Assembly: GCA_036446455.1 (NCBI GenBank)
Contig: JAZFSZ010000093.1
Coordinates: 1 to 59,968 of the forward strand
DNA length: 59,968 bases
Direction: 5' to 3'
From: Acidiferrobacterales bacterium
Lineage (GTDB): Bacteria > Pseudomonadota > Gammaproteobacteria > Acidiferrobacterales > JAJDNE01
Part shown: positions 37,812 through 55,379 of the stretch, piece by piece
Numbering within the stretch: position 1 is the first letter of the stretch
How the letters are laid out: each line of letters begins with the position of its first letter
The notes under the pieces: model-generated
Told to the model about the DNA's origin: nothing
Seen by the model: the letters and a program-made list of their open reading frames with translations, nothing else
Database searches by the model: none
Program-made: the position numbers and the translations under genes

Positions 37812-37822
37812 GGAAGCGTATC

Positions 37823-40928: not shown

Positions 40929-41035
40929 ACTGGCATTGTATGAGCGACTGGCTGAGACAAGGAACAAATCCTGGCTGCCATAGTCCAATTGATAATTATC
41001 CCTTGTGTATGGCCGCATAGGCCAATGATTGCAGC

Positions 41036-41914: not shown

Positions 41915-41916
41915 CG

Positions 41917-43095
41917 ATGAGTGCGAGCCAGCAAAAAGAGTTTGCAGAGCTGACGGAGTCACTGCTCGGGCATCTGGTTGGTTTTCTGCGTTTCATGCGC
42001 GGCAATGGCTATCACCTCGGCATCCAGGAAGAGCTGGATGTAATGAAGATGGCAGAGTTCAGTGGCCTGCTGGAACCACAGCGGATGCGGTGGGGTTTAC
42101 GTGCCCTGCTATGTTCCAGCAGCGATGATTGGCAGCGTTTTAACAAGCTGTTTGATTCCTACTGGAATCCGGACACTCGAACTCGAGAACAGCGTCACAA
42201 TTATTCAAACAAAATGGATAGCAGGAATGGCCCGGGTGGCCAGCACGGTGGTGGCAGCCAGGTGGCTGAGGCCGACAATGCTGAGCAGGGCGATGCCAGC
42301 GATGCCGGTGACGGTGGCAGCAAAGGCGGTGCCAGCGCCCAGGAAGCCCTGGCCCGCAAAGACTTTCGCCTGCTGGCGGATGCGTCACAGATGCGTGAGA
42401 TGGAGTTCCTGGTGGAACGTCTGGCGAAACGGATGCGCCGTCGTCTGATGCGCAGATACCGGCTGCAACAGCATGGTCATCGTATCCATTTTCGCCGCAC
42501 CATTCGCAACAGTCTGCGTTATGGTGGCACGCCCCTGGACCTGGCCTTTAGACAACGCAACAAACAGTTACCGCGTCTGATCCTGTTACTCGATGTCAGC
42601 CGCTCCATGAGCCTGTACAGTTTTCTGTTTTTGCGTTTTGCCCGCGGCATCGTAGAGGCGTTTAAAGATGCCGATGTCTTTGTCTATCACACCCGGCTAG
42701 TGCATGTCACAGATGCCCTGCGAGAACGTGACATGATCAAGGTCAAAGAGAAGCTAGTGTTGATGTCGGCCGGTTGGTCCGGTGGTACCCGCATCGGCGA
42801 ATGTTTGCAGCTGTTTAATCTCGACTATGGTCGCCGTATTGTTAATTCACGCTCAGTGGTAATAATCGTCAGTGATGGTTATGACACCGGTGAGCCGCAA
42901 CTACTGGCGCAACAGCTGCAACAGTTGAAGCAACGGACCCGAAAAATCGTCTGGCTGAATCCGTTGCTGGGACGTGATGGTTATGAACCGATTGCTGGTG
43001 GAATGCGGGCGGCGATGCCGTTTCTCGATCTGTTTGCCCCGGCCCATAATTTGGAGAGCCTGTTGAAACTGGAATCTGATTTGATAAAGCTCTAG
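41917..43095 (+). CDS. coxE: VWA-domain protein (CoxE-like)
   Basis: 392 aa. C-terminal VWA with MIDAS-like LLLDVSRSMS. Gly/Asp/Ala-rich linker. Starts 3 nt after the coxD stop. Confidence 0.75.
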   Translation: MSASQQKEFAELTESLLGHLVGFLRFMRGNGYHLGIQEELDVMKMAEFSGLLEPQRMRWGLRALLCSSSDDWQRFNKLFDSYWNPDTRTREQRHNYSNKMDSRNGPGGQHGGGSQVAEADNAEQGDASDAGDGGSKGGASAQEALARKDFRLLADASQMREMEFLVERLAKRMRRRLMRRYRLQQHGHRIHFRRTIRNSLRYGGTPLDLAFRQRNKQLPRLILLLDVSRSMSLYSFLFLRFARGIVEAFKDADVFVYHTRLVHVTDALRERDMIKVKEKLVLMSAGWSGGTRIGECLQLFNLDYGRRIVNSRSVVIIVSDGYDTGEPQLLAQQLQQLKQRTRKIVWLNPLLGRDGYEPIAGGMRAAMPFLDLFAPAHNLESLLKLESDLIKL

Positions 43096-43107
43096 GGACT
43101 CGAAACG

Positions 43108-44124
43108 ATGAGACTGGAAAGTGATGCAATATTGGATAAAGCTGCCCGCCTCAAGGCCGAGGGTAAACCCTTTGCCCTGGTGACCGTGGTGCGGGTTGTT
43201 TCGCCCACCTCGGCCAAGCCGGGAGCCAAGGCAGTGGTCGAACCGGATGGCGTGATCCAGGGTTGGATCGGTGGTGGCTGCGCCCAGCCGGCGGTGATCA
43301 AGACAGCGAAAAAGGTTTTGCAGGAAGGTCTGGCGCGTTTGATTCGCATCAGTCCGACCAGGGATGGATATGTGGAGGAGGGAATCACTGATTTTGGAAT
43401 GACCTGTCATAGTGGAGGTACCTTGGATATTTTTATCGACCCCGTTATCCCGCGTCCCGTTTTGTTGGTAATCGGCGCTTCACCGGCGGCTCAGGCTCTG
43501 GTGGGGCTGGCCCAGCGCGTTGGTTTCTCTGTCACCGCTGCATTTACCGGAGCGGATGCCGAGATGTTTCCTGACGCAGATAGAATCATCGACGGTTTTG
43601 ATGTGGCTGATGTCTCGCCCAGTTTTGTTGTGGTTGCGACACAGGGTAAGCGCGATGAGCAAGGCCTGGAAGCGGCAATCAGTATTGGTGCAGTCTATAT
43701 TGCTTTTATTGCCAGTGAACGCAAGGCGACAAAGTTGAAAACCTATTTAAAAGAGAATGGGTGTGATGCTGATCGAGTCGACGCCATCATTTCACCTGCG
43801 GGTGTCGAGATAGAGGCGGTGACGCCGGAAGAGATTGCCCTGTCGGTGCTGGCCGGAGTAGTGAAGGCGCGTCGTGAGGGTGTGGCTGTGCCACAGCCTG
43901 CAGTAGCAAGTAGTGAAATTGGTTCCAGCTACAGTGATTCGACAAAGGCAGAAGTAAAACCTGAACCAAAACCAGCCACCGCAATCGATCCCATTTGCGG
44001 AATGTCGGTAGAAACGAAAGACGCCGAGTATCAAAGCGAATACAAGGGAAAAACCTATTATTTTTGCTGTGGCGGGTGTGAGCACCGCTTTGAAAATGAG
44101 CCGGAAAAATACTTGAGAGCATGA
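43108..44124 (+). CDS. XdhC/CoxI-family maturation protein fused to a C-terminal YHS/TRASH-type metal-binding domain
   Basis: XdhC N-domain (ALVTVVRVVSPTSAKPGAKAVV...GWIGGGC) and Rossmann-like XdhC_C (LLVIGASPAAQAL). The last roughly 45 aa, DPICGMSVETKDAEYQSEYKGKTYYFCCGGCEHRFENEPEKY (nt 43987-44121), match the YHS pattern. Confidence 0.75.
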   Translation: MRLESDAILDKAARLKAEGKPFALVTVVRVVSPTSAKPGAKAVVEPDGVIQGWIGGGCAQPAVIKTAKKVLQEGLARLIRISPTRDGYVEEGITDFGMTCHSGGTLDIFIDPVIPRPVLLVIGASPAAQALVGLAQRVGFSVTAAFTGADAEMFPDADRIIDGFDVADVSPSFVVVATQGKRDEQGLEAAISIGAVYIAFIASERKATKLKTYLKENGCDADRVDAIISPAGVEIEAVTPEEIALSVLAGVVKARREGVAVPQPAVASSEIGSSYSDSTKAEVKPEPKPATAIDPICGMSVETKDAEYQSEYKGKTYYFCCGGCEHRFENEPEKYLRA

Positions 44125-44747
44125 CAACAGTATCAGCAGTGTTATTGGCGGCAGGCGTATCGCGCCGCATGGGTGAGGTCAACAAGCTTGAATTGCTGGT
44201 TGATGGCGTTCCCTTGCTGCGCCGTGCGGCAGAAACCCTGCTTGCCTCAAGGTTGCAAGAGATCGTTGTCGTGTTGGGCCATCAGGCAGAAAAGGCTGGC
44301 TCTATGCTGGAGGGTTTGCCGCTTCATACTATATATAACGAAGCCTATCGTGATGGTCAGATGACTTCGGTTTATCAGGGGTTGTCGTCTCTGTCGCAAA
44401 CTTGCGATGGGGTAATGATCTGTCTGGCAGACCAGCCCTTGTTGCAAACAGATGATGTAAACGTTTTGATCGAGGCATTTGGCAAGTGCAATCACGGGCG
44501 TGGTCATGGTTCTATACTGGTGCCTACTTTCCAGGGCAAGCGCGGTAATCCCATCGTCCTCGACTATCAGCACCGACTGGAGATTTTGAACGGTGAGCGT
44601 AATCTCGGTTGTAAAAAACTAATCGATAAAAATCCCGGGCAGGTCAGCAGTTTTGAAATGAGCAATAACCATGTGGTGGTTGATCTCGATACACCGGAAC
44701 AATACGCGGCCTTAACGGCAGGACAGAGTGAGACTATGACCTCATAA
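44121..44747 (+). CDS. mocA: Molybdenum cofactor cytidylyltransferase (MobA/MocA-like nucleotidyltransferase)
   Basis: N-terminal AVLLAAGVSRRMG. 208 aa. Its start overlaps the preceding stop (ATGA). Confidence 0.7.
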   Translation: MTTVSAVLLAAGVSRRMGEVNKLELLVDGVPLLRRAAETLLASRLQEIVVVLGHQAEKAGSMLEGLPLHTIYNEAYRDGQMTSVYQGLSSLSQTCDGVMICLADQPLLQTDDVNVLIEAFGKCNHGRGHGSILVPTFQGKRGNPIVLDYQHRLEILNGERNLGCKKLIDKNPGQVSSFEMSNNHVVVDLDTPEQYAALTAGQSETMTS

Positions 44748-44764
44748 AATAGCGGCATATTGCG

Positions 44765-45586
44765 ATGGCTAAAGAGATTATCGATGTACTAGTGGAGATG
44801 CGTGAAAAGGGTAAACCTTATGCGGTGGCCACTGTGATCGAAACCATCGGTTCTGTCTCGGCTAAAACTGGTTCCAAGGCTGTCATCGATCATGAGGGCA
44901 GGATTGTGGCCGGTTGGGTTGGCGGTGGCTGCGCCGAGTCGACCACTTGTGATGAAGCACTGCAATGCATGCGCAATGACAAAAGCTCGGTGATAGATAT
45001 CGATCTGGATGATGAAGTATTAGGTGCAAGCATGCCCTGCGGTGGGAGTATGCGTGTGTATGTTGAACCGGTATTACCACGCCCAAGCCTGTGGTTGATG
45101 GGCCATGGTCGTGTTGCGGAATGTCTGTGTCAGATGGCTGATCTGATGGGGTTGAATGTGATTGTTAACGATCCAGTCATCAACCGGGAAAAATATCCGG
45201 CTGCTAAAAAACTGATCACTGATGATCTCGACTATGAACAACTGCAACCTGAAGACGGTGACTATGTGGTGATAGCGACTCAGCACAAGGGTGATCATGA
45301 ATCCATGAAGCGGGCGCTGGCCTCCAAGGCGAAATACATTGCCCTGATCGCCAGCCGCAAGCGCTCACGCCTGGTGCTGGACTATCTGCATCGTGAAGGT
45401 TTTGGTGAGAATGATTTGCAGCGCGTCATGGCACCTTCCGGACTGGATCTCGGGGCGCGGACGCCAGAAGAGATTGCCCTCTGTGTTATTAGTGAAATTG
45501 TGCTGGTGCGTCGTCAGGGGAGCGGCATGCGCATGCGCGACAAGCTAATGCAGGAAGCGCAACAGGCTAAGCGGGTAAAGGCTTAA
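44765..45586 (+). CDS. Second XdhC/CoxI-family maturation protein
   Basis: 273 aa. AVATVIETIGSVSAKTGSKAVI...GWVGGGC and a Rossmann-like C-domain. Confidence 0.75.
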   Translation: MAKEIIDVLVEMREKGKPYAVATVIETIGSVSAKTGSKAVIDHEGRIVAGWVGGGCAESTTCDEALQCMRNDKSSVIDIDLDDEVLGASMPCGGSMRVYVEPVLPRPSLWLMGHGRVAECLCQMADLMGLNVIVNDPVINREKYPAAKKLITDDLDYEQLQPEDGDYVVIATQHKGDHESMKRALASKAKYIALIASRKRSRLVLDYLHREGFGENDLQRVMAPSGLDLGARTPEEIALCVISEIVLVRRQGSGMRMRDKLMQEAQQAKRVKA

Positions 45587-45590
45587 GTCG

Positions 45591-46841
45591 ATGCTGGATA
45601 CCGTAATTAAATTCAGCCCGCTCGATGTGTTGGATGTAGCAACCATCCGAGCTGGCTTTCCTTTGTTGGCCAGGGCGGGTGAGTCACTGCATTATCTTGA
45701 CAATGCCGCTACCACCCAGAAACCCCATGCGGTGATTGATGCCATCGGCGACTGTTATCGCCGTCACTATGCGCCGGTACATCGGGGTCTGTATCCGTTG
45801 GCAGAAGAGGCCAGTCATCGTTATGAAATTGCGCGCAGCACGGTAGCGAAATTTATCGGTGCACCTGGCGATCAGTTGATCTTCACTCGTTCTGCGACGG
45901 AGTCCATTAACCTGGTGGCGCAAGGTTGGGTGCGCCCACGTCTGCACCAGGGGGATCAGGTATGGGTAACGCGGATGGAGCATCACTCCAATTATTTGCC
46001 CTGGCAGGTCTTGTGTCGTGAAACCGGGGCGCAGCTACGCATTATTGATCTTAAGGCAGATGGCTCACTGGATTTTGACAGCTGTTCCAGCCTGTATGGC
46101 TCACGTACCAGACTGATTGCCGTGACTCATGCTTCCAATGTGTTGGGTGTGATCAATCCGGTTAAAGAGATATGTGCACGGGCAGCGGAACAGGGCATTG
46201 CGGTGATGGTTGATGCTGCCCAGTCAGTGGGGCATATGCCTGTTGACGTCGCTGAGCTGGGTTGTGATTTTCTCGCCTTTTCCGCTCATAAGATGTTTGG
46301 CCCAACCGGCATTGGTGCGCTGTATGGCAAGGCTGAGCGACTGTCCGGGATGGAGCCGCTATTGTTGGGTGGCGGCATGGTGGATAGTGTTGGTGAGCGC
46401 GACAGCAGCTGGGCGCCGTACCCGGCAAAGTTCGAAGCCGGTTCGCAGAATCTTGCCGATGCTCTGGGTTTTGCTGCAGCGGTGAATTGGCTGGGGAACA
46501 TCGGCATGGCTGCAATGCATAGCCATACAACACGGTTGACCCGGTATGCGCTGGATACCTTGTCGAAGATGAGTGGCGTGGAGATCTATGGTCCGCGCGA
46601 TGTGCATGAACGCGTTGGCATAGTTTCTTTCAATCTGGCAGATGTGCATCCCCATGACGTTGCCCAGGTCGCCGCCGAGCGTGGCGTCGCCATCCGTGCC
46701 GGTCACCACTGTTGCCAGCTGCTAATGCAGCATCTGGGCGTGGCCGCCACCGCACGGGCCAGTTTCGCACCCTATAACGACCGGAACGATGTCGATGCCC
46801 TGGCCGATGCCATCCGTGCCGCACAGGCCGTGTTTGAATAA
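45591..46841 (+). CDS. sufS: SufS-type (group II) cysteine desulfurase
   Basis: 416 aa. PLP Lys in FSAHKMFGPTGIG. Catalytic Cys loop RAGHHCCQLLM. Confidence 0.8.
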   Translation: MLDTVIKFSPLDVLDVATIRAGFPLLARAGESLHYLDNAATTQKPHAVIDAIGDCYRRHYAPVHRGLYPLAEEASHRYEIARSTVAKFIGAPGDQLIFTRSATESINLVAQGWVRPRLHQGDQVWVTRMEHHSNYLPWQVLCRETGAQLRIIDLKADGSLDFDSCSSLYGSRTRLIAVTHASNVLGVINPVKEICARAAEQGIAVMVDAAQSVGHMPVDVAELGCDFLAFSAHKMFGPTGIGALYGKAERLSGMEPLLLGGGMVDSVGERDSSWAPYPAKFEAGSQNLADALGFAAAVNWLGNIGMAAMHSHTTRLTRYALDTLSKMSGVEIYGPRDVHERVGIVSFNLADVHPHDVAQVAAERGVAIRAGHHCCQLLMQHLGVAATARASFAPYNDRNDVDALADAIRAAQAVFE

Positions 46842-46847
46842 GGCTTT

Positions 46848-47261
46848 ATGAGTGATATCAGCATTTACAAAGAGGTGTTGATGGATCACTACCGCAATCC
46901 ACGCAATCGTGGTGACCTGACCGATGCCGACGTGGTGCGCCGCGGCAGTAATCCTCGTTGTGGTGATGATATTGAAGTGGGTGTGAATTTTGAAGATGGC
47001 ATGCTTGGCAAGGTAATGTTCCGTGGTCGCGGTTGTTCAATCTGTCTGGCTTCAGCCTCGATGATGACCGTGGCAGTGAGCGGCAAGAGTAAACGGGATG
47101 CCCATCAACTGGCAGAAGGCATGAAGACCTGGTTCAGCGCTGATGGTGGAGAACCTGCCAGGAGCTTGCAAGCACTGCAGGCGGTGCGCGGCTACTCCGC
47201 TCGCAAGCGTTGTGTATTACTGGCCTGGGAGGCACTGGATGATGCGCTTGCAGCTGAGTGA
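46848..47261 (+). CDS. sufU: SufU/IscU-like sulfur acceptor/scaffold protein
   Basis: 137 aa. YRNPRNRG...NPRCGDDI...GRGCSICLASASMM is typical of SufU (three Cys ligands). Confidence 0.8.
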   Translation: MSDISIYKEVLMDHYRNPRNRGDLTDADVVRRGSNPRCGDDIEVGVNFEDGMLGKVMFRGRGCSICLASASMMTVAVSGKSKRDAHQLAEGMKTWFSADGGEPARSLQALQAVRGYSARKRCVLLAWEALDDALAAE

Positions 47262-47415
47262 GGACATTTCATTCAGACCACTCACCCGTGAGCTGGTCAG
47301 TGGTCTGATCATGGCCTATTACCCGACACCAGACAGCAGGACTGCATTGTCGTTTACTGCCCTGTGTGGCATTCCTGTTGCGCTGCTATTTAATCTGTTG
47401 CTCAGACGAGGTTAA
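47239..47415 (+). CDS. Possible 58-aa protein with C-terminal hydrophobic helix (speculative)
   Basis: The ATG at 47239 has the SD GGGAGG 6 nt upstream. It overlaps the sufU 3' end by 23 nt. C-terminus is ALSFTALCGIPVALLFNLLL. No family recognised. Confidence 0.25.
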   Translation: MMRLQLSEDISFRPLTRELVSGLIMAYYPTPDSRTALSFTALCGIPVALLFNLLLRRG

Positions 47416-47555
47416 GCCCGTCACCATACATAAATAGCAGTCGTCATGTTTGCCGTTGGATGATGGGGCTGATATTAATGGACATGACCCTGGGGATGGA
47501 TGCTATGTCGGCCATTGCGAGTGCTGAATTCAGAGTATATTCGTAAAGGAACCTT

Positions 47556-48254
47556 ATGAATCCTGGAAATAAGAACGAAAACATTCACCTGCTGTGGCCG
47601 ACGCCAATCCTGCGCAAGAAGTTTGATCAGCATGAGTCTGTGAATCCAAAGTTGGCCAAACTGTTTTACAAACATCGTAGCAATGACAACAAGGCCGATG
47701 CACCAGTCTATTCCAGCGGCGATGATCTATTGATACGTTATGATGACCCAGCCCTGAATCAGCTGTTCAGCTTTATCTCTGAGAGTGTGTATGAAATCTC
47801 CAGCGCCATGAACAGCGAGATATGGAAACACAGTCGCTCGAAAAAGATGAATATGAACGTGGTCGGAGCATGGTTTCAGATCCAGAACGGACACGGTTAT
47901 CACGAAACCCATACCCACGGTAATTGTGCCTGGTCTGGGGTCTATTACATCCAGGTCGATAACGACGAAAAACGCGAAAGCAACAAAGAGCTGGGCGCCA
48001 TGAATGGCATTACCCGTTTCCACGGTCATTACATGGACATTATCGGCGGTGGCTACATGGATTCCGGCAATCTCTACCTGCAACACACCGGTTTTGATTC
48101 TAAGCCGGAAGAAGGCGTGCTGTGTGTCTTTCCCTCCCATGTCAAGCACATGGCCATGCCATATGTTGGCGACAAAGACCGCATCATTGTTTCATTTAAC
48201 GCCCAGGTTCACGGTGACCAGAGTGATGAGGTGTTTGATTACAGTTTTTATTGA
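47556..48254 (+). CDS. TIGR02466-like putative 2OG-Fe(II) oxygenase
   Basis: 232 aa. N-terminus LWPTPIL. His-rich facial-triad candidates YHETHTH and PSHVKH. SD AAAGGA. Confidence 0.6.
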   Translation: MNPGNKNENIHLLWPTPILRKKFDQHESVNPKLAKLFYKHRSNDNKADAPVYSSGDDLLIRYDDPALNQLFSFISESVYEISSAMNSEIWKHSRSKKMNMNVVGAWFQIQNGHGYHETHTHGNCAWSGVYYIQVDNDEKRESNKELGAMNGITRFHGHYMDIIGGGYMDSGNLYLQHTGFDSKPEEGVLCVFPSHVKHMAMPYVGDKDRIIVSFNAQVHGDQSDEVFDYSFY

Positions 48255-48880
48255 GTTGGGGAGCGTAGCCGAAGATGGAGTCGAGTCTGATTCTCGAAGT
48301 AGTTGGCGATCCAGTAGTCCACGCTGACGTAGCGGCCGCTGCCGATGAAAAACAGTGCCATCAGCATGATGAAGTAGGTGGCGGCGAACTCGATACCGTT
48401 GTTGAGCATAACGAAGCTGCCATTCTCGGTAAGCCAATCGTAATTGCCATGTTGTTTTAGTAAATCTTTGGCGGCAGCGAGACGCTCAAGACCCCCCGAA
48501 ACACGTTCAGAGCCAAACAGCCATAAACTACCATCAGCTATGGCGAGCCAGCCATTTTTTATGTGTACAGAGAATGCAGCGACCAGCATGATGATCATAA
48601 GCGGAACGGATATCCAACGAACGGCAAAACCAAAAATCAAAAATACCGCGCCAGCAAGTTCAGTGGAAATGGCGAGAAAGGCCAGTATTTCAGGAAAGGG
48701 TAGTCCAAGACCCCAATCCGGATTGCCAAACCACGAAACCGTGTTATCAAAGTGGCCGAACTTATTCATTCCTGCCATCAGGAAAATAGGTGCGAGATAT
48801 AAGCGAAGTGCGAGCGGCGCGAGAAAATCGGCCTGTCGGGTTTTATTGAGCAGTTCCTGGACCTTGAGTAGCATGTCCAT
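48248..48880 (-). CDS. DoxX-family membrane protein (fourth gene of the MNIO RiPP cluster; HvfX/bufferin DoxX-like)
   Basis: The ATG at 48880 has the SD AGGAGAAACAG. Four TM helices with a DoxX-type N-terminus (LALRLYLAPIFLMAGMNKF). Confidence 0.75.
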   Translation of the reverse strand: MDMLLKVQELLNKTRQADFLAPLALRLYLAPIFLMAGMNKFGHFDNTVSWFGNPDWGLGLPFPEILAFLAISTELAGAVFLIFGFAVRWISVPLMIIMLVAAFSVHIKNGWLAIADGSLWLFGSERVSGGLERLAAAKDLLKQHGNYDWLTENGSFVMLNNGIEFAATYFIMLMALFFIGSGRYVSVDYWIANYFENQTRLHLRLRSPTQ

Positions 48881-48959
48881 CTGTTTCTCCTGGAATCTTT
48901 TTGTATTTGCAACTGATGGAATCAGACACTTAAGTGGCAATGAAGTTCATCGCCCGTAA

Positions 48960-49754
48960 TTAAAAGTTTTTGGTGACGCCCAATACAATATCGTGTGATT
49001 TGAGATTGTTCAGAATCTCCATGCCGCCGTCAATCACCACCGCCGGATCGGCGTGCTGCATCTCGCTGGCCAGCTCCTGAAGCACGTGCTCACTTGTTAA
49101 TTGTCCATCCTGCTGGAGACGGTTTAATAACACCGTTGTCATTGGATTGATTTCTATAAATCCTACTTCGTCTTTCAAGTCACGATAAACGATGATATTG
49201 GTGGGCTGTTCACCCGGCTTCTTTGGTTGAAAATCTTTACTGATTTGGTGCACTGGGTATTCATAGCTCAATATCCATGCAAGTGGTGAAATAACGGGGT
49301 GACCTGACAGCAATTCACCGTCTTTGTCGATGCAGTCCCAGTCAATTTGTTCATTTGATTGTAATGCCGCCAGCTCCATCCATTCGTAGTGCGCCAGCTC
49401 CACCATGAAGTTTGGGTCACTAGCTTGCGGGCGCCTGACATGGTTTAAATATTTCAGGAACTCGGCCGGTAGCTGCGGGAACAACGGTGTTTCAGCACGA
49501 TGATTGGCAAAATAGTCCTGCAGCAACTTTTGCCAGCGATCTTCGCCGAGGATTTCCTTCAGCACCGGGAAACTGGATGTCATGAAGTCTTCTATATTAT
49601 TGAAGAAAAGCTCGCGATATATTGCCATGCGGCGATCTTCGATTTCCGGTGGACGTGGGTTGTTCTGCGGATCCCTTATATAGGCCGCAAATTCATATTG
49701 CTTTTTCGTGAAATTGTTTCGCTCAGACGGACTGTGCGACTTGCTGGTGTTCAT
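48960..49754 (-). CDS. hvfC: DUF2063-family partner protein of the MNIO enzyme (HvfC/BufC-like)
   Basis: About 264 aa from the ATG at 49754, which overlaps the HvfB stop by 32 nt. N-terminal FAAYIRDP motif and overall DUF2063 pattern. Confidence 0.75.
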   Translation of the reverse strand: MNTSKSHSPSERNNFTKKQYEFAAYIRDPQNNPRPPEIEDRRMAIYRELFFNNIEDFMTSSFPVLKEILGEDRWQKLLQDYFANHRAETPLFPQLPAEFLKYLNHVRRPQASDPNFMVELAHYEWMELAALQSNEQIDWDCIDKDGELLSGHPVISPLAWILSYEYPVHQISKDFQPKKPGEQPTNIIVYRDLKDEVGFIEINPMTTVLLNRLQQDGQLTSEHVLQELASEMQHADPAVVIDGGMEILNNLKSHDIVLGVTKNF

Positions 49755-50583
49755 TTCTCGCACTCCACTGTTTTTGTAATGCCACAATCCGGTCAATTTC
49801 TGTAAGGAGTTCAGACAGTGGCGGAATGTTGAAATCGCGTTCAACCATTGTTGGCATCACGCCGAAAAATTCGTAGGCCTTGTCCAGCAGTCTCCACACC
49901 GGATCGATAATATCGGCACCGTGGGTGTCGACAAGCAGGTCTTCTGCTTCATTGTAATGGCCGGCAATGTGGACGTAGGCTATGCGGTCGCCCGGTAACT
50001 GCTTGAGGAATTCCTCTGCATCGTAACGGTGATTAACGCTATTGACGTAAATATTGTTTACATCGAGCAGGAAATCGCAATCGGCTTCTCCCAGCACCGC
50101 GTTTATGAAATCAATTTCTTCCATTTCCTGACCCGGTGCGGCGTAATAGGAAACATTTTCCATAGCAATACGCTGGCCAAGGAAGTCCTGAACTTGCCGG
50201 ATGCGGTCGGCGACGTAGTGCACGGCCTCTTCAGTAAAGGGAATGGGCATGAGGTCGTAGAGATGACCATCATCACTGCAGTAACTCAAATGCTCACTGT
50301 AGTAGAGAATGTTGTGCTGCTTCAGAAAGTCTTTGACTTGCTGTAGAAAATTAAAATCAAGTGGTGACGGGCTGCCAATGGAAAGCGACAGGCCGTGGGT
50401 AATAAAGGGATAACGTTCAGTGAACGCACTGAATTTTTTGCCGTAGCGGCCGCCGAGATTGATCCAGTTCTCCGGGGCAACTTCAAAAAAATCGATCTGG
50501 GCAGGAGCCTGATCCTCAAGCGGGCCCATGAGGGCCCGTTTGAGTCCAAGTCCGGCACCATGAACGGGATAATCTTTGATCAT
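49723..50583 (-). CDS. hvfB: DUF692 / MbnB-like multinuclear non-heme iron oxidase (MNIO) RiPP maturase (HvfB-like)
   Basis: 286 aa. N-terminus GAGLGLKR...IDFFEVAPENW and the HGLSLSIGS, SEHLSY, ENVSYY and DVNNIYVNS strings typical of the DUF692 TIM barrel. Confidence 0.85.
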   Translation of the reverse strand: MIKDYPVHGAGLGLKRALMGPLEDQAPAQIDFFEVAPENWINLGGRYGKKFSAFTERYPFITHGLSLSIGSPSPLDFNFLQQVKDFLKQHNILYYSEHLSYCSDDGHLYDLMPIPFTEEAVHYVADRIRQVQDFLGQRIAMENVSYYAAPGQEMEEIDFINAVLGEADCDFLLDVNNIYVNSVNHRYDAEEFLKQLPGDRIAYVHIAGHYNEAEDLLVDTHGADIIDPVWRLLDKAYEFFGVMPTMVERDFNIPPLSELLTEIDRIVALQKQWSARNEHQQVAQSV

Positions 50584-50602
50584 GGATTAAGTGCACGCGA
50601 AC

Positions 50603-50935
50603 TTATTTCTTGCCGCCGCACTTACCTTCGCCACATTGGCCTTCTTTCTTGCCTTTGTTCATATCTTTTTTCTTGGCGCCACAATGTGATTCACCATTTT
50701 TCTTGGCGCCGCAATGAGCTTCCTTACCCTTCATGCCACCACAACTGCCGGTTTTACTGCCTTTCTTCATGCCACCACAGCTACCGTCCTTAGCAGCGAC
50801 CTGGTAACCACTGGAAAGTGGGCTCATCGCAAAAGGGTTCTGGCCAGCGCTGACAACCGGGCTGGCAGCCATGGAAGTGATAAAGGTAGCGCCAATCGCT
50901 ACCGCCAACGCCTTGGGGGTATGTTTCTTAACCAT
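50603..50935 (-). CDS. hvfA: HvfA-like secreted RiPP precursor with six Cys-Gly motifs
   Basis: The ATG at 50935 has the SD GGAGA 8 nt upstream. Sec signal peptide ends ...PVVSA. Conserved NPFAMSPLSSGY leader element. Lys/Gly-rich core is GSCGGMK x2, HCGAKK x2, GQCGEGKCGG. Confidence 0.8.
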   Translation of the reverse strand: MVKKHTPKALAVAIGATFITSMAASPVVSAGQNPFAMSPLSSGYQVAAKDGSCGGMKKGSKTGSCGGMKGKEAHCGAKKNGESHCGAKKKDMNKGKKEGQCGEGKCGGKK

Positions 50936-50980
50936 ATTATTTCTCTCCATCAAATGTTGATATTGCTGTCTTTTAGTGAA

Positions 50981-50997
50981 AAAGTTTGAAAAACTTT
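50981..50997. promoter_or_regulatory. Palindrome AAAGTTT-GAA-AAACTTT upstream of the precursor gene (candidate operator)
   Basis: Perfect 7-bp inverted repeat 46-62 nt upstream of the hvfA ATG. It overlaps a possible -35-like TTCAAA on the minus strand. Confidence 0.25.
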
Positions 50998-51133
50998 AAA
51001 TTTGAGACACTTCAATACTGTCAGTCGGGTTGCCAGACAGATTATGGCCCCCTTGATCTGCACTCTCCGTAGCGCTCGAATGAGTCTGACTCTCAGGTAT
51101 CAGGAAAGTTTCAAAAAGACTAGTTAATGTGGA

Positions 51134-51577
51134 TTATCTGGCGGAAGTGCCAGGATTTATGTCAATGCAGGACAGATAACTATCTTCGTCGGGCGCGCTT
51201 CCCTGGCGCTGTGCTTGCCATAACATCTCAGCGAGGCATTCCATAATAATGTGTTGCGCTTCATGGGCGTCACCCCGTTTTTTTGCGAGTGCCTCAAATC
51301 TGGATTTGATGCCCAAGGGTCGGTCCATGCCCAGCTGTTCTTCAATGGTGACGTGCATGCCCATGTGCAAAAACGGGTTGGTTGCGCCGTGCTCGGGCAG
51401 GTAGTCCTTGTCTGCAAACTGATCCGGTTGTTCCAGCAGGTTGTGATATTCCGGATGCTGCAGTGCCACTTGCACAATGACGCCCTCAACTCCTTCGAGC
51501 TGTTTTTTATCGAGGTATTTTCGCCAGGCAGAGAAGAATATCTGGCGTGATTCCTGACGCGATCCGGCAAAAAGCAT
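51134..51577 (-). CDS. DUF1841-family protein
   Basis: 147 aa. FFSAWRKY...NPFLHMGMHVTIEEQL...EAQHIIMECLAEMLW matches my memory of DUF1841. Confidence 0.65.
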   Translation of the reverse strand: MLFAGSRQESRQIFFSAWRKYLDKKQLEGVEGVIVQVALQHPEYHNLLEQPDQFADKDYLPEHGATNPFLHMGMHVTIEEQLGMDRPLGIKSRFEALAKKRGDAHEAQHIIMECLAEMLWQAQRQGSAPDEDSYLSCIDINPGTSAR

Positions 51578-51580
51578 AAG

Positions 51581-52678
51581 TTAATTATCGATCTTATAAA
51601 GACCCAATATGGTTGAGTACTGGTAGAGATGGTTTTCTGCATCCAGCGGGCCGATTTCGCCATTGCCGTAAAAACCAATAGTCGGCAGGCCAGGACAGGC
51701 GGCCTGCAGGATCTCCAGATCACGATCGCGGTTGCCATAGAAATTGGGACCGCGACCCATGCATGGAAACAGAAACGCGAAATCCGGCGAATCGCCCAGT
51801 TGTTGCTGCGCGCGTTTGACTGTTTGCTTCATCTCGCGTTCGGCTGCCAGCGTATCGCGCATGGCCCAGAAGAGAGACTCGCCAGGGCTCAATCGATCGG
51901 AAAGTGTGATCGACTGCTTGCTGAGGTTGGCCGAGATAATATGGTTCAGTCGATAGCGTCCCGCACTGATGGCCGTGGCCGGGTCCCCAAAAGTGACACC
52001 CCCGATCAAAAGGTGTAGCGGTATATGCTTCTGCTGCCGCACCGCTTCCGGTAGTGAGCGTACCAGCACATTAAGTGCCGGGTAATTACCGAGACGTATC
52101 AGGTCGTGTCCCTCCACTTCGGCGACCTTGATTGGTGCGGTAAGCGCACGCACGCCCTGCGACACCGTCACGGCACTGCGTGTTTGACGGATACGGACCT
52201 CCACCCGACCGCTTTCGTTATCGCGGCTGCCACTCCAGACTTTGAATGGCCCTTTTCCAAAGGGATCACCGGAAATGGCGCCAATTCGTGTTGCCGGAAT
52301 GTCTAACCAATTGCTATCCAGTCCAGCGGGTGTGCACAAGCTGATGATGCTGTCGGAATCGTCATTGTAATCGTGGACGGGATCGAGTTGCAGATCGCCG
52401 CCAAACACCATGGCTGCGGCGCCCGGGCTATCCAGTAGCCACTCATCTTCAGTAAGTATGCCGGTGCCGGTACAGCCAATCACTTGCATGCTGCCGGCAG
52501 TGCGCGCTGCAGCGCGCAGGGCCGGTTCGGGATCAGCAGCATATTCGTGGGTAAGAAACACAAACGCGCCGTTAGCGCGTGTTAGTTTTGCGCGTTCAAG
52601 CGCAATCCGCACCGCCTCAGCGGCATGCCCAGAATCGGGTTTGCCTCCGTGACTCAAGCCTGTAGCGACGGCAGTCAT
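51581..52678 (-). CDS. FIST-domain (FIST_N plus FIST_C) sensory protein
   Basis: 365 aa. The pattern resembles FIST proteins (...FLFPCMGRG...FYGNGEIGP at the C-terminus). Its start overlaps the nth stop by 4 nt. Confidence 0.65.
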   Translation of the reverse strand: MTAVATGLSHGGKPDSGHAAEAVRIALERAKLTRANGAFVFLTHEYAADPEPALRAAARTAGSMQVIGCTGTGILTEDEWLLDSPGAAAMVFGGDLQLDPVHDYNDDSDSIISLCTPAGLDSNWLDIPATRIGAISGDPFGKGPFKVWSGSRDNESGRVEVRIRQTRSAVTVSQGVRALTAPIKVAEVEGHDLIRLGNYPALNVLVRSLPEAVRQQKHIPLHLLIGGVTFGDPATAISAGRYRLNHIISANLSKQSITLSDRLSPGESLFWAMRDTLAAEREMKQTVKRAQQQLGDSPDFAFLFPCMGRGPNFYGNRDRDLEILQAACPGLPTIGFYGNGEIGPLDAENHLYQYSTILGLYKIDN

Positions 52679-53310
52679 TCCTCTACTTTATCGCCATACT
52701 CACATAAATCATAGATGACACAGCTGCCGCACCGGGGCTTGCGCGCTATACAAGTGTATCGTCCGTGCAGAATCAGCCAGTGGTGGGCATCGTGTTTAAA
52801 TTCATCTTTCACCACTTTCATCAATTTATCTTCTACTGCACGTACGGTTTTTCCGGGGGCAATGCCGATGCGGTTGGAGACGCGGAAGATGTGTGTGTCT
52901 ACTGCAATAACCGCTTCGCCGAAGGCGGTGTTGAGCATGACATTGGCGGTTTTGCGGCCCACACCCGGCAGTGCTTGCAGTTGTTCACGTGTGCTCGGTA
53001 CCTTGCCATTGTGTTCATCCACCAGAATCCGGCAGGTTTTGATGATGTTGGCGGCTTTGGTGTTATAGAGCCCAATGGTTTTGACATGGGATTTCAATTT
53101 GCGCAGCCCCAGGTCGAGAATGCCCTGGGCGGTCTTTGCATTTTTGAACAGATTTTTAGTGGCAAGGTTGACACCCTTGTCTGTCGCCTGGGCCGACAGG
53201 ATAACGGCAACGAGTAACTGAAAAGTGTTGCCGTGCCTGAGCTCTGTTGTCGGGCGCGGATTGGCCTTACGCAGGCGCTCGAATATTTTTCGCCGCTTGG
53301 CCGTATTCAT
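52675..53310 (-). CDS. nth: Endonuclease III
   Basis: 211 aa. HhH-GPD (LPGVGRKTANV) and C-terminal 4Fe-4S cluster loop CIARKPRCGSCVIYDLC. Confidence 0.92.
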   Translation of the reverse strand: MNTAKRRKIFERLRKANPRPTTELRHGNTFQLLVAVILSAQATDKGVNLATKNLFKNAKTAQGILDLGLRKLKSHVKTIGLYNTKAANIIKTCRILVDEHNGKVPSTREQLQALPGVGRKTANVMLNTAFGEAVIAVDTHIFRVSNRIGIAPGKTVRAVEDKLMKVVKDEFKHDAHHWLILHGRYTCIARKPRCGSCVIYDLCEYGDKVEE

Positions 53311-53960
53311 TTTGCCTCTCGCCTATGTTTGTCACGTTCTACTGCAGCACGAATTTCGGCGCGAATGCGTTCACGTTGGGAAACAGCCTTGGCCTTTCTT
53401 TTTTGGGCTCGCTGTCGGGCGATGGATTGCAGGCGACGCAATCTGAGTACGGTATTCTTATGGGCTTGTCTCACATCGTTTTGGGCATACTCGGGCCAGG
53501 GTGCAGTGGAAGTGGTTTGGTGAATAGAGTCGCCCACCAGATAAATGCAGTCTACCGGGCAGACTGGCAGGCACAACTCACAGCCGGTACATAGATCTGG
53601 CAGAACGGTATGCATTCGCTTGGCGCGGCCAATAATGGCGTCCACCGGACAGACCTGGATACACAGTTTGCATCCGATGCATTGTGACTCAATGATGACC
53701 GCAAGCACACGCGGTTCGTGTACCCCGCATTCCGGATCCAGTGGCTCCACTTGCTGTTCCAGAAGATTTGCCAGGCCATTAATGGTGGTATTGCCACCGG
53801 GAGGGCAGCGATTAATCCCGGTTTCGCCGCGATAAATCGCTTTTGCATAATCACGGCAGCGAGGATAACCGCAACGCGTACACTGGGTCTGGGGAAGCCA
53901 CGTGTCTATGGCGTGGATGGAGCGCTTGAGGTCGCCGGCAAAATCTGGGCTGTCTGACAT
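53307..53960 (-). CDS. RnfB/RsxB-like soluble ferredoxin (no membrane anchor)
   Basis: The ATG at 53960 gives MSDSPDF.... N-terminal Cys cluster CTRCGYPRCRDY...CPPGG. Two 4Fe-4S motifs, CIGCKLCIQVCP and CTGCELCLPVCP. Basic C-terminal tail. Overlaps the nth start by 4 nt. Confidence 0.75.
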   Translation of the reverse strand: MSDSPDFAGDLKRSIHAIDTWLPQTQCTRCGYPRCRDYAKAIYRGETGINRCPPGGNTTINGLANLLEQQVEPLDPECGVHEPRVLAVIIESQCIGCKLCIQVCPVDAIIGRAKRMHTVLPDLCTGCELCLPVCPVDCIYLVGDSIHQTTSTAPWPEYAQNDVRQAHKNTVLRLRRLQSIARQRAQKRKAKAVSQRERIRAEIRAAVERDKHRREAK

Positions 53961-54065
53961 GGCGCGAGTATGGCCACAGGTCGGGGCGAATGCAATGCTG
54001 TTAAAAGAAGCATGGGCGCCCACATCCCAAGGCGCTACACTAGCCTTTCGGGGTGTAATTAACGG

Positions 54066-55379
54066 ATGAAAAAGAAGACGATAAAAAAGGACCACGGCGG
54101 GGGTTTTCTGAAAGGCGTTATTCGCCAGATAAAACATTCGCGCAAGGCAGTCACTATTCTGTTTACCGATGTTGAGGGGTCAACAAGCTACTGGGATCGA
54201 CACGGTGATGTCAAAGGACGGCTGATGATTGATCAGCACAACCGTGTTGTGTTTCCCATCATACGTCAGTTCAAGGGAAAGATAGTTAAAACTATCGGTG
54301 ATGCAGTGATGGCTTCATTCCACGATCCGGAGCAGGCTGTGAAGGCGGCGATTGCCGTTCAGCAGGGTCTGGAAAAGAAACGCAAGGATGATCGATCCTT
54401 CCGTATGCATGTACGTGTCGGGGTTCATACAGGGCAGGCGATAGTCGAGAACCAGGACGTGTTCGGTGACGTTGTAAACGTGGCCGCCCGCATCGAGAGT
54501 CGCGGCAAGGGCGATGAGATACTGGTATCCGGTGCGACGGCGAGAGCGCTGAATAAAGACGCGTACCATTTGAAAAAGAAAGGTAGCTATGTTTTCAAGG
54601 GCAAACGGAATCCAGTAACGCTCTATCGCTGCAAGTGGCAAGATTCTGCCAAGTATATTGATACAGTCGAATTTCGCAGCTTGTTACCTTACGTCGCCCG
54701 GCAAAAGGTGGAGCTACTTGTGCACACAATCGCCACCATCAGTGTACTTTACTTTCTATATATTAAATATGTGCGTTATCTCATTGTTGATTCGGAGCGG
54801 CTTGCCGCATGGGCGCTGGATCCCGGTGCAATCCTCAATGTACATCCGGTGATTCCGGTTTCAGTTGTGATTGTACTGGCGATCGGTGTGCAGCTGTTCG
54901 GCAGCATTCACACCATTCCCCATACGGTGTTGCGCTTCGTCAAAGGTGGCTTCGGTTATGCGGTCGGATTCGCGATCGTTATCCTTGTCGCGGCAACCCT
55001 GACTGGCCAGACAGAGCGGGAGATTAGAAAAGTCATGATGCGTTCTAATCATTTATTTGTTGAGGTGCTGAACAATAATACCGAGCTGCGTTCGCGGGCA
55101 AGCCTGGACGGGAAAGTAATCCAACGCGTTCAAAAGGGAGATTTGATGTTGCTTGCCGACGTGAAAAAATACAAGGGGGTGACCTGGAACAAGGTGTTTC
55201 TGGGCAATAACCAGTACGGTTGGGTGCAACGCGTTGTGCCGCCACGAATCGGTGTGCCAGAAAAACGGCTTACTGTCGCCTACAAATTTTACTTCAGACG
55301 ACTTGATGTATTTGCCCTGGTTGGAGGGCTAATGGGTTTTGTCTGGGGGTTCCTCAATTTTCGCATTCGGCCGGTTTAA
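54066..55379 (+). CDS. Class III adenylate/guanylate cyclase with C-terminal TM bundle, SH3b-like domain and terminal TM helix
   Basis: Cyclase motifs ILFTDVEGST and TIGDAVMASF. About 4 hydrophobic helices at residues ~215-325. SH3b-like RSRASLDGKVIQRVQKGDLMLL...WNKVFLGNNQYGWV. Final helix is FALVGGLMGFVWGFL. Confidence 0.75.
   Translation: MKKKTIKKDHGGGFLKGVIRQIKHSRKAVTILFTDVEGSTSYWDRHGDVKGRLMIDQHNRVVFPIIRQFKGKIVKTIGDAVMASFHDPEQAVKAAIAVQQGLEKKRKDDRSFRMHVRVGVHTGQAIVENQDVFGDVVNVAARIESRGKGDEILVSGATARALNKDAYHLKKKGSYVFKGKRNPVTLYRCKWQDSAKYIDTVEFRSLLPYVARQKVELLVHTIATISVLYFLYIKYVRYLIVDSERLAAWALDPGAILNVHPVIPVSVVIVLAIGVQLFGSIHTIPHTVLRFVKGGFGYAVGFAIVILVAATLTGQTEREIRKVMMRSNHLFVEVLNNNTELRSRASLDGKVIQRVQKGDLMLLADVKKYKGVTWNKVFLGNNQYGWVQRVVPPRIGVPEKRLTVAYKFYFRRLDVFALVGGLMGFVWGFLNFRIRPV

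Follow-up and report, generated by a model that had tools for sequence, protein, structure and literature searches.

A probable HvfABCX/FonABC-type captophorin operon with a slightly unusual peptide core

Four closely packed genes in the window (the whole stretch of DNA analysed here, 59,968 nt) raise the question of which peptide product they make and what purpose it may serve. The earlier note on this DNA had read them as an MNIO/DUF692-dependent RiPP metallophore cluster of the HvfABC plus DoxX type, an assignment now backed by three of the four proteins, which exceed curated HMM cut-offs, and by the homology of the precursor to characterised precursors. We consider it about 85% probable that these genes form an HvfABCX/FonABC-type operon for captophorin biosynthesis; most likely, a secreted Cys-rich peptide is converted by an iron enzyme into a copper-binding captophorin. 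The features concerned are:

51085..51112, minus strand: ECF-sigma-type promoter-like motif upstream of hvfA, GAAACTT-16-nt spacer-TCAGA
50603..50935, minus strand: hvfA-like precursor gene, 110 aa, stop codon (50603–50605) included
50846..50935, minus strand: predicted Sec signal peptide, aa 1–30, cleavage after VSA, by inspection
50804..50839, minus strand: leader element NPFAMSPLSSGY, aa 33–44, N33-P-F-x4-L40-x2-G43-Y44
50606..50785, minus strand: core with six x-Cys-Gly sites, aa 51–110
49723..50583, minus strand: hvfB, MNIO (DUF692) iron-dependent oxidase, 286 aa
48960..49754, minus strand: hvfC, partner protein (PME1), DUF2063, 264 aa
48922..48948, minus strand: second ECF-type promoter-like motif, GAACTT-N16-TCTGA, in the hvfC–hvfX gap
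48248..48880, minus strand: hvfX, DoxX-family membrane protein, 210 aa

The four open reading frames, checked at these coordinates, follow one another in the order hvfA-hvfB-hvfC-hvfX. The precursor stop lies 19 nt from the hvfB start, the hvfC ATG lies inside hvfB (32-nt overlap) and 79 nt separate hvfC from hvfX, so that the packed, co-oriented arrangement at 48248–50935 described earlier is confirmed in every detail. The spacing is identical in L081, a related contig with independent gene calls, and comparison with the L081 homologues indicates purifying selection on all genes (dN/dS 0.19 for hvfA, 0.06 for hvfB and 0.17 for hvfC). A convergent gene for a 2OG-Fe(II) oxygenase overlaps the 3′ end of hvfX by 7 nt.

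HvfB had been described as a DUF692/MbnB-like iron oxidase, and this identification is secure: the protein scores 450.9 bits with the HvfB model NF003818 (cut-off 360), matches Pfam MbnB_TglH_ChrH (PF05114) over its full length at 1.2e-105 and matches PDB 3BWW at 3.6e-74. It is 65% identical to FonB, 48% to NgoB and 46% to H. influenzae HvfB, and falls below the BufB cut-off (267.7 versus 310). Ten residues that we take, from MNIO patterns, to be candidate metal ligands (H63, H98, E142, D174, N177, H205, H209, D219, H221 and E248) are invariant across 81 sequences, as is D250, which aligns with the catalytic Asp249 of FonB. R16 and F251 likewise correspond to Arg16 and Phe250 of FonB; a residue of the latter type is typical of x-Cys-Gly/Lys-Cys enzymes, whereas Cys-Lys enzymes have Asp there (PMC13097082). 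At a known substrate-gating position, the enzymes of the window's clade carry Lys15 in place of the Arg of their relatives (the gatekeeper Arg15 of FonB).

The partner protein HvfC consists of an N-terminal DUF2063 domain (PF09836, 9e-27), as had been proposed, followed by an RRE-like C-terminal domain (NGO1945_C, PF22106, 1.7e-30). It reaches 309.9 bits with the HvfC model NF050145 (cut-off 142), is 41% identical to FonC, 25% to NgoC and 24% to H. influenzae HvfC, and matches PDB 3DEE at 1.9e-9; 3BWW and 3DEE are the two solved structures from such clusters. HvfX, which starts with an ATG preceded by AGGAGA, is the DoxX protein that the earlier note had placed fourth (PF07681, 6.9e-21; 233.7 bits with the HvfX family model NF050144, cut-off 80), and its hydropathy profile displays four transmembrane-like segments. 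Since NCBI annotation models name HvfB, HvfC and HvfX, the expectation that generic pipelines would call three of the genes DUF or hypothetical no longer applies.

The precursor is the least conventional of the four. The models for DUF692, DUF2063, DoxX, HvfB, HvfC and HvfX all matched, whereas the precursor remained under the cut-off of both NCBIfam HvfA models (15.1 versus 19.5 bits; 9.8 versus 95 bits); nor was a DUF2282 match found in it. Yet it is clearly homologous to the class, as judged from its Sec-type N-terminus, its NPFxxxxLxxGY element and its six Cys-Gly sites: 180 precursor homologues were found, and it is 41% identical to FonA over the full length, with a pairwise E-value of 6e-14 (compositional adjustment). 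The label ‘HvfA-like’ given previously is thus right as to homology and loose as to fit, the peptide being closer to FonA than to HvfA.

All the parts of this 110-aa precursor that had been listed earlier, namely Sec signal, leader and Lys/Gly-rich Cys-containing core, are present. GGAGAG precedes the ATG start codon by 7 nt, and the N-terminus, judged by eye, comprises a basic n-region (MVKKHTPK), a hydrophobic core of ~20 aa and an AXA-type site, VSA30|GQ; signal cleavage has been demonstrated by experiment for HvfA and BufA1 (PMC11252979, PMC11626156). Of 120 precursor homologues, 111 have the form [NS]PFxxxx[LIMV]xxGY. In the window precursor the element aligns with VFQASDLGAGY of FonA, which shares it; in neither HvfA nor NgoA is it evident. 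It is probably the contact for the RRE-like domain of HvfC. The predicted mature part of 80 aa contains 19 Gly, 17 Lys and 6 Cys, the latter in the sites GSCGG (C53), GSCGG (C65), AHCGA (C75), SHCGA (C85), GQCGE (C101) and GKCGG (C106). Lys precedes Cys only at the last of these, the other residues being Ser, Ser, His, His and Gln, and the core is slightly unusual for a captophorin; the five Cys without a preceding Lys were counted against our best explanation. Cys-Gly itself is retained at 97–100% of sites in every rank group of precursor homologues, and at 476 of 482 sites in precursors adjoining related HvfB genes.

The order of steps and the chemistry that we propose are carried over from the experiments on FonABC, HvfABC, NgoABC and BufABC. 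The precursor would be made in the cytoplasm, where its NPF...L..GY leader would be held by the RRE-like domain of HvfC, itself forming a heterodimer with the iron enzyme HvfB. With O2, HvfB would carry out a four-electron oxidation at every x-Cys-Gly site, in which the Cys β-carbon is joined to the carbonyl oxygen of the residue before it, giving a 5-thiooxazole; since 4 H would be lost per site, up to 24 Da would be lost for six sites. The modified peptide would then be exported via Sec and cut after VSA30, yielding an 80-aa Lys/Gly-rich periplasmic peptide whose thiolate/oxazole groups may bind and buffer copper, perhaps aided by its four Met and two His. HvfX would be a four-helix DoxX accessory, probably dispensable for modification.

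The earlier note had assumed a different product, with Cys converted to oxazolone/thioamide. Such pairs were the first assignment for HvfA, in 2024 (PMC11252979), and the group is made by MbnB, a distant relative of HvfB. The HvfA product was, however, revised to 5-thiooxazole in 2026 by two groups, one independent and one being the original authors (PMC13097082; bioRxiv 10.64898/2026.06.05.730506), on the grounds of alkylation-assisted HMBC and comparison with methanobactin (see also 10.64898/2026.07.17.739211). As the window enzyme scores only 53 bits with the MbnB model (cut-off 325), we regard oxazolone/thioamide pairs as extremely improbable here.

How many of the six sites are converted is a separate matter. 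HvfB might convert the terminal GQCGEGKCG pair, perhaps Ser-Cys-Gly as well, and leave His-Cys-Gly as plain thiols in a mixed thiol/thiooxazole peptide. FonB puts seven 5-thiooxazoles on FonA in vitro, and FonBC requires a small residue after Cys (PMC13097082). It accepts Ala, Arg or Thr before Cys; non-cognate 5-mers, NVCGG and LVHCY among them, were modified by it one time only. Partial modification would also fit with the two Cys outside the repeats of HvfA that are left unmodified (PMC11252979), and with the CGE[GAS]KCG pair being the most conserved core element (110 of 120 homologues). It is nevertheless unlikely, if worth keeping in mind: the His/Asn/Ser/Gln-Cys-Gly sites are kept in number and context over about 45 homologue clusters, the cognate enzyme has its clade-specific Lys15 at the gating position, and the cognate enzyme of NgoA modifies all seven of its Cys, including the three in S-C-G sites (SI Fig. 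S18 of PMC13097082).

The genomic setting suggested another role. A form I CO dehydrogenase (CODH) island lies directly beside hvfX, at 0–12 kb, with a CoxL of 1424 bits (TIGR02416) bearing the active-site loop VAYRCSFR, accessory genes coxG, coxD and coxE, and a CoxF-like XdhC fused to a metal-binding YHS domain. The peptide could then supply or store copper for the adjoining Mo-Cu CODH, in the manner of methanobactin rather than of a detoxifier, and the adjacency recurs in L081 and L082, two independent assemblies of close relatives. The next relatives, however, lack the island here: no cox sequence occupies this position in L001, L002 has, about 2.5 kb downstream of hvfX, sequence homologous to window 33.6–35.6 kb, and other clade members have a sigma-54 activator instead, while the conserved neighbours, rnfB-nth-FIST-DUF1841, lie on the opposite side. 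The hvf and cox genes are moreover convergent and not co-transcribed, and the precursor has an export signal, whereas CODH maturation takes place in the cytoplasm. Service to the CODH is hence very unlikely; the island is no conserved partner of the hvf cluster, and the CO-oxidising setting loses the novelty once attached to it.

Upstream sequences bear on regulation. The GAAACTT/TCAGA motif begins 177 nt upstream of the hvfA ATG, both elements being invariant when the window is aligned with L081, L001 and L002. It is present in 36 of 61 hvfA upstream regions, with an equal spacer in 34 of the 36, and in all nine loci of the window's precursor clade; a strict form was counted in 23 of the 61 regions, where shuffled sequences gave 0.17 on average, and the opposite strand never carries it. 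We infer that it acts as an ECF-type promoter, in which case transcription would probably start about 140–175 nt upstream of hvfA. The 3′ end of the second motif is 41 nt upstream of the hvfX ATG. This motif is kept, with a variable spacer, in all seven clade loci with an adjacent hvfX (window, L001, L002, L081, L084, L086 and L087) and is clade-specific, because among the 44 gaps scanned only three clade loci (window, L001 and L002) carry it; it may function as a promoter, probably giving the clade's hvfX one of its own directly ahead. Scans for sigma-70 promoters and terminators returned nothing useful. ECF control has precedents in RpoE2 of H. influenzae, SigE of Neisseria and SigF of Caulobacter (PMC7907618, PMC2893595, PMC11626156).

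In the 60-kb window neither a regulator nor a pump for copper turned up, nor a gene for an ECF sigma factor, and this was counted against our best explanation. An ECF-type motif with no copper genes nearby could point to the same biosynthesis serving mainly to defend the envelope against oxidants, be they hypochlorite, peroxide or reactive sulfur species, and copper binding would then be a side property. The homologous H. influenzae operon is indeed HOCl-induced in an RpoE2-dependent manner (PMC7907618), the Neisseria cluster is co-regulated with msrAB (PMC2893595) and a connection with thiol and oxidative stress has been drawn for DoxX proteins (PMC11252979, PMC12452194). Against this stands the fact that scavenging activity is reported for no member. 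The Met-rich spacers (CGGMK) of the precursor, moreover, presumably suit periplasmic Cu(I) ligands. Copper binding is common to all characterised products, and bufferin mutants are sensitive to copper (PMC11626156, PMC13097082); binding has been shown for fontiphorin, gonophorin, oxazolin and the bufferins, and periplasmic copper protection for the bufferins (PMC13097082, PMC11252979, PMC11626156). We therefore consider oxidant defence a doubtful main function and retain the copper-binding captophorin.

Among characterised systems, the fontiphorin cluster FonABC of Fontimonas thermophila comes closest (PMC13097082). FonA and the window precursor have in common a Sec-type N-terminus, an F-x4-L-x2-GY-x-VA leader and a C-terminal CGEGKCG pair; FonA, however, carries its seven Cys in A/G-K-C-G repeats, whereas the window precursor has no repeated 5-mer, and the fon cluster has no DoxX gene. 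Oxazolin HvfXABC of nontypeable Haemophilus influenzae (PMC11252979; revised in bioRxiv 10.64898/2026.06.05.730506) comprises the same four protein families, with a Sec-dependent precursor and ECF-sigma control, in the order doxX-A-B-C (PMC7907618) instead of A-B-C-doxX; HvfA differs in its three AEGKCGEGKCG repeats and disulfide-bonded N-terminal region. Gonophorin NgoXABC of Neisseria gonorrhoeae (PMC13097082; PMC2893595), whose partner protein is the 3DEE structure, mixes three G-S-C-G-A sites with K-C-G and so offers the sole experimental precedent for the Ser-Cys-Gly sites of the window precursor. Unlike the latter, NgoA has no His-Cys or Gln-Cys sites, and the ECF-controlled ngo cluster is fused into an rpoE/anti-sigma operon. 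For bufferins Buf1/Buf2 of Caulobacter vibrioides, an MNIO and a DUF2063 partner put 5-thiooxazoles on a Sec-exported precursor, which binds copper in the periplasm (PMC11626156), the logic proposed here; buf1 also has the order A-B-C-DoxX, with DoxX dispensable, but bufferin precursors are folding DUF2282 or 6/12-Cys proteins. In methanobactin MbnABC, a distantly related MNIO likewise turns Cys of a ribosomal peptide into a copper ligand, with a different partner (MbnC), an oxazolone/thioamide product and secretion for copper acquisition; no MbnA, MbnC or uptake genes are present at the window locus.

The captophorin class was said to be only recently recognised, with very few members characterised. 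By now it has been described well and proves very widespread: the catalogued loci exceed 24,000, among them eight from Acidiferrobacterales, the order to which the nearest relatives belong. Specific to this locus are the single Lys-preceded Cys in six, Lys15 in the clade's enzyme and the two ECF-type motifs.

The cluster proposed in the earlier note, an MNIO/DUF2063-type metallophore locus, is real and was correctly named, and its four minus-strand genes were all found in the window where that note had placed them:

50935 to 50603, minus strand: hvfA-like precursor gene, from ATG to stop (110 aa), with GGAGAG 7 nt 5′ of the ATG
50583 to 49723, minus strand: MNIO gene (hvfB), starting 19 nt past the precursor stop
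49754 to 48960, minus strand: DUF2063 partner gene (hvfC), from its ATG, overlapping the MNIO gene by 32 nt
48880 to 48248, minus strand: DoxX gene (hvfX), from the most plausible ATG, with AGGAGA 5 nt 5′ of it

A longer, TTG-initiated form of the precursor (116 aa) is without ribosome-site support of the GGAGAG kind. Independent gene calls on the related contig L081 give lengths and spacings equal to those of the window, and dN/dS against L081 is 0.19 in the precursor gene, 0.06 in the enzyme gene and 0.17 in the partner gene, which indicates that all three are kept by selection. At the other end of the cluster, HvfX of the window carries a 13-aa C-terminal extension (48248-48290, minus strand) as compared with its L081 homologue (10199-10792). 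The 3′ end of hvfX shares 7 nt with the convergent gene for a 2OG-Fe(II) oxygenase, which leaves no space for a terminator between both genes; L081 has a gap of ~330 nt at this place.

Profile searches with the enzyme, the partner and the membrane protein.
Enzyme; Pfam MbnB_TglH_ChrH (PF05114); 1.2e-105, profile positions 1-262 of 263
Enzyme; NCBIfam HvfB (NF003818); 450.9 bits, above the cut-off of 360, profile positions 1-264 of 264
Enzyme; NCBIfam BufB (NF050167); 267.7 bits, below the cut-off of 310
Enzyme; NCBIfam MbnB (TIGR04159); 53.2 bits, below the cut-off of 325
Enzyme; ApyH and ChrH models; failed
Partner; Pfam DUF2063 (PF09836); 9e-27, residues 19-103
Partner; Pfam NGO1945_C (PF22106); 1.7e-30, residues 156-251
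Partner; NCBIfam HvfC (NF050145); 309.9 bits, above the cut-off of 142
Membrane protein; Pfam DoxX; 6.9e-21
Membrane protein; NCBIfam HvfX (NF050144); 233.7 bits, above the cut-off of 80

The DUF692, DUF2063 and DoxX assignments made at first reading agree with the Pfam searches, and the curated HvfB, HvfC and HvfX cut-offs were all passed. Among solved structures, 3BWW from Histophilus somni matches the enzyme (3.6e-74) and 3DEE, of NGO1945, the partner (1.9e-9). Residues H63, H98, E142, D174, N177, H205, H209, D219, H221 and E248, which we take from knowledge of the MNIO family to be metal ligands, are invariant in an alignment of the enzyme with 80 genomic relatives (81 sequences), as is Asp250. 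The latter aligns with the catalytic Asp249 of FonB, the enzyme of Fontimonas thermophila, while Phe251 aligns with Phe250 and K15/R16 with R15/R16. HvfB is an MNIO enzyme with intact putative metal residues and catalytic Asp, and its gene adjoins that of a PME1 partner composed of an N-terminal DUF2063 domain and an RRE-like C-terminal domain.

Two other identities were considered for the cluster and rejected. Bufferin precursors are DUF2282 or 6/12-Cys proteins; if the cluster encoded a bufferin of the Buf1 type, the precursor should carry DUF2282 and the enzyme reach the BufB cut-off; the precursor has no such domain and the enzyme scored 267.7 bits against 310. A methanobactin cluster is likewise at odds with the MbnB score (53.2 bits against 325) and with the presence of a DUF2063 partner, not MbnC; an MbnA-like ORF was not found.

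The precursor itself had no family match in Pfam even at E ≤ 10, DUF2282 thus being absent, and remained below the NCBIfam cut-offs for NF050137 (KCGExKCG_twice; 15.1 bits, cut-off 19.5) and NF050188 (HvfA; 9.8 bits, cut-off 95). It is nevertheless homologous to FonA, NgoA and HvfA, with 41% identity to FonA over the full length (pairwise E 6e-14, with compositional adjustment). Of the earlier description of the precursor as HvfA-like, the homology to the HvfA family holds; the protein, which has only one KCG, is not recognized by the NCBIfam HvfA models. Despite these sub-cut-off scores, the protein clearly belongs among the captophorin-type precursors, captophorins being the thiooxazole peptide class. 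A search of a large protein collection gave 180 homologues, almost all unnamed or called 'low-complexity protein', and the leader element [NS]PFxxxx[LIMV]xxGY is found in 111 of the 120 homologues listed. This element is common to the window precursor and FonA (VFQASDLGAGYMVA), whereas it is not visible in HvfA and NgoA.

As judged by inspection, the N-terminal region resembles a Sec signal peptide, with cleavage likely after VSA30, and the predicted mature peptide of 80 aa (pI 9.6) contains 19 Gly, 17 Lys and 6 Cys. The 110-aa ORF provides the Cys-rich precursor expected next to the enzyme gene, which in this class usually has a Sec signal. No further plausible small precursor ORF was found in the intergenic gaps. 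In L087, a locus of the same clade, a single hvfB is preceded by a tandem pair of precursor genes, for 96 and 103 aa (4001-4599).

All six Cys are followed by Gly, as are 97-100% of Cys per rank group among homologues and 476 of 482 sites in precursors beside related enzymes. The residues that precede them are Ser, Ser, His, His, Gln and Lys, the sites being GSCGG (twice), AHCGA, SHCGA, one EGQCG and one EGKCG (aa 103-107). The window precursor accordingly falls outside the class defined by a repeated Lys-Cys 5-mer (EGKCG). Precursors beside the 80 nearest genomic HvfB genes have Lys before 91% of Cys; in the ~45 nearest homologue clusters of the precursor, Lys precedes only 20-26%, with His, Asn, Ser and Gln instead.

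The class to which the cluster belongs, which the earlier note took to be barely known, is by now well characterized and routinely annotated. Gadgil et al. catalogued >24,000 loci pairing an MNIO with a DUF2063 partner, eight of them in Acidiferrobacterales according to their taxonomic table, and proposed 'captophorins' as the class name (PMC13097082). Antoine et al. collected ~2,000 EGKCG-type precursors as well as hundreds more small, signal-bearing, Cys-containing ORFs ahead of MNIO genes (PMC12452194). The oxazolone/thioamide chemistry formerly ascribed to HvfA, and repeated at first reading, has been superseded: reconstitution of FonABC yielded seven 5-thiooxazoles, the peptides of H. influenzae and N. 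gonorrhoeae likewise carry 5-thiooxazoles instead of oxazolone/thioamide pairs (PMC13097082), and the original HvfA authors have since reached the same reassignment (bioRxiv 10.64898/2026.06.05.730506). With respect to the membrane protein, the Caulobacter DoxX is dispensable both for modification and for copper protection (PMC11626156).

Among the characterized systems, FonABC is the closest to the window cluster in sequence. The enzyme shares 65% identity with that of Fontimonas, 48% with that of N. gonorrhoeae and 46% with that of H. influenzae, the corresponding values for the partner being 41%, 25% and 24%; the reference sequences were machine-read from the supplement PDF of PMC13097082, so that small errors are possible. 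The captophorin pathway is the most likely mechanism at the locus, every step of it being predicted from homology to the characterized systems, including conversion of Cys to 5-thiooxazole and copper binding by the product. In the position before Cys, FonBC accepts Ala, Arg and Thr and rejects Phe and Glu, and it introduces one modification only into a non-cognate NVCGG substrate; mutagenesis showed that Arg15 of FonB gates substrate acceptance (PMC13097082). In NgoA, three sites read G-S-C-G-A and all seven Cys are modified (PMC13097082), which gives the Ser-Cys-Gly sites of the window an experimental precedent; unlike these, its His-Cys-Gly and Gln-Cys-Gly sites are without one.

Position 15 is also where the window enzyme differs from most of its relatives. 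Six extra loci of the non-Lys precursor clade were included, and the resulting nine clade enzymes, window included, were compared with 78 others. Lys occupies this position in all nine and Arg in 77 of the 78, and no other column separates the clade from the rest. This pattern might reflect covariation of the enzyme with its substrate. However, the nine enzymes are closely related, such that covariation is inseparable from shared ancestry, and Lys15 is also paired with all-Lys or mostly-Lys precursors (loci L011 and L088); it is therefore a lead, not a demonstrated covariation. That the clade forms a distinct captophorin subclass, in which a Lys15 enzyme acts on a peptide whose modified Cys mostly follow His, Asn, Ser or Gln, is an unlikely proposition, to which we would give about one chance in eight.

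In an alignment of the hvfA upstream region with those of three relatives, the blocks TGAAACTTTCC and AGTCAGA are invariant, while the sequence around them has diverged. These and the gap ahead of hvfX contain the following candidate elements:

51085-51112, minus strand: ECF-type promoter-like motif GAAACTT-N16-TCAGA, upstream of hvfA
48922-48948, minus strand: second motif, GAACTT-N16-TCTGA, in the 79-nt gap ahead of hvfX

The first resembles an ECF promoter of the RpoE/AlgU type. A motif of the form [GTA]AAC[TC]T-N15-17-TCnnA occurs in 36 of 61 hvfA-like upstream regions from diverse Gammaproteobacteria, 84-182 nt from the ATG and with an identical spacer in 34 of the 36. The strict motif is found in 23 of the 61 regions, as compared with a mean of 0.17 and a maximum of 2 in 200 shuffles, and is absent from their opposite strand. 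Both strands of the entire window together give just four matches, one of them the motif ahead of hvfX. All nine clade loci possess the hvfA-upstream motif, and all seven with an adjoining hvfX keep the second one with a variable spacer, while among 44 hvfC-hvfX gaps scanned the latter was found only in the three clade loci of that set. The E. coli RpoE consensus is GGAACTT/TCAAA (quoted in PMC2893595), and ECF control is known elsewhere, through RpoE2 with HOCl in H. influenzae (PMC7907618), SigE in Neisseria (PMC2893595) and SigF in Caulobacter (PMC11626156); neither motif was found described in the cited literature. The occurrence of the first motif in many Gammaproteobacteria suggests that the stress-sigma control of Haemophilus and Neisseria may be general, and the second hints that the DoxX gene can be expressed independently. 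A search of the window for ECF sigma and copper-homeostasis genes found none, and a search for transcript evidence of the predicted start sites gave no RNA run covering the region; both promoters are putative.

Other signals were sought around the cluster. Consensus scans for sigma-70 promoters and intrinsic terminators gave nothing above shuffled background or well placed, and no short inverted repeats of note were seen in the flanks. A sigma-54 reading of TGGCAACCCGACTG was rejected by eye because the GG-N10-GC spacing does not fit. The putative hvfA 5′ UTR (50936-51078, minus strand) contains the conserved blocks CGAGCGCTACGGA and TGGCAACC-G-CTG, which have neither a predicted structure nor an Rfam match. 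A riboswitch-like element was considered and dropped: the consensus fold of the hvfA upstream region reaches only -6.95 kcal/mol and the single-sequence fold of the putative 5′ UTR has a z-score of 0.38; the ~140 nt show no significant RNA structure, and an Rfam scan of the whole window returned zero matches.

Immediately before hvfA, on the same strand (51134-54137, minus), lie an rnfB-like gene, nth (endonuclease III), a FIST-domain protein gene and a DUF1841 gene. In 80 related loci, nth adjoins the cluster in 38 and DUF1841 in 20, and members of the clade retain all four genes (L001, L002, L081, L084-L088). On the other side is a different neighbourhood:

~35700-48250, plus strand: form I Mo-Cu CO dehydrogenase (CODH) island, between hvfX and a PAS-GGDEF-EAL gene

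The first gene downstream of hvfX, convergent with it, encodes the TIGR02466 2OG-Fe(II) oxygenase; it is followed by SufU-like and SufS-like genes, two XdhC-type maturation factors and a MocA-type cytidylyltransferase, then coxE, coxD, coxG and the coxMSL operon, with VAYRCSFR, the form I loop, in the large subunit. The cox genes make it plausible that the host oxidizes CO, as the earlier note had assumed. One XdhC factor, CoxF-like (43108-44124, plus strand), bears a C-terminal YHS metal-binding domain (PF04945, 8.7e-18), and this fusion could plausibly serve copper handling in CODH maturation. A functional link between the cluster and the island might be read from their adjacency, which is shared by the related loci L081 and L082. 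It is not conserved beyond these closest relatives, however: the island is absent from the same position in L001 and in L002, sequence homologous to window 33.6-35.6 kb lying ~2.5 kb past hvfX in the latter, and other clade members have a sigma-54 activator in its place. The adjacency thus seems to result from insertion within a single sublineage and not from a functional pairing. That in the window lineage the peptide would be tied to copper supply for the adjoining CODH is a weaker variant of the subclass proposal.

The window, which derives from marine sediment (DNA runs) and from a gammaproteobacterium related to Acidiferrobacterales, has other features of its own. After the E1 alpha and beta genes, a single 1012-aa ORF (26458-29496, plus strand) joins E2 and E3 parts, an unusual fusion comprising lipoyl (two Biotin_lipoyl stretches), E3-binding and 2-oxoacid dehydrogenase acyltransferase domains and a full dihydrolipoamide dehydrogenase. 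Signalling genes are dense (12116-14542, plus; 17060-19363, minus; 30988-35172, plus; 54066-55379, plus) and encode a membrane adenylate/guanylate cyclase as well as three GGDEF-EAL proteins, of which one, 1394 aa long, also has GAF and multiple PAS domains. PADLOC defence models had no match in the window.

Taken alone, the window cluster is one more environmental example of a class numbering tens of thousands, and its originality, residing in core sites other than Lys-Cys, the Lys15 variant of the enzyme and the conserved ECF-type promoter motifs, is modest. In the thiooxazole ring, C2 bears the residue that had preceded Cys. Should the subclass exist, a His at this position would bring an imidazole next to the ring nitrogen and the thiolate; the resulting ligand set, and perhaps also the preference for metals or the redox behaviour, could be unlike those of fontiphorin, oxazolin and gonophorin. 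The His-, Asn-, Ser- and Gln-Cys-Gly sites, together with the Lys15 enzyme, constitute a natural substrate series with which to study how the pre-Cys and gatekeeper residues determine selectivity.
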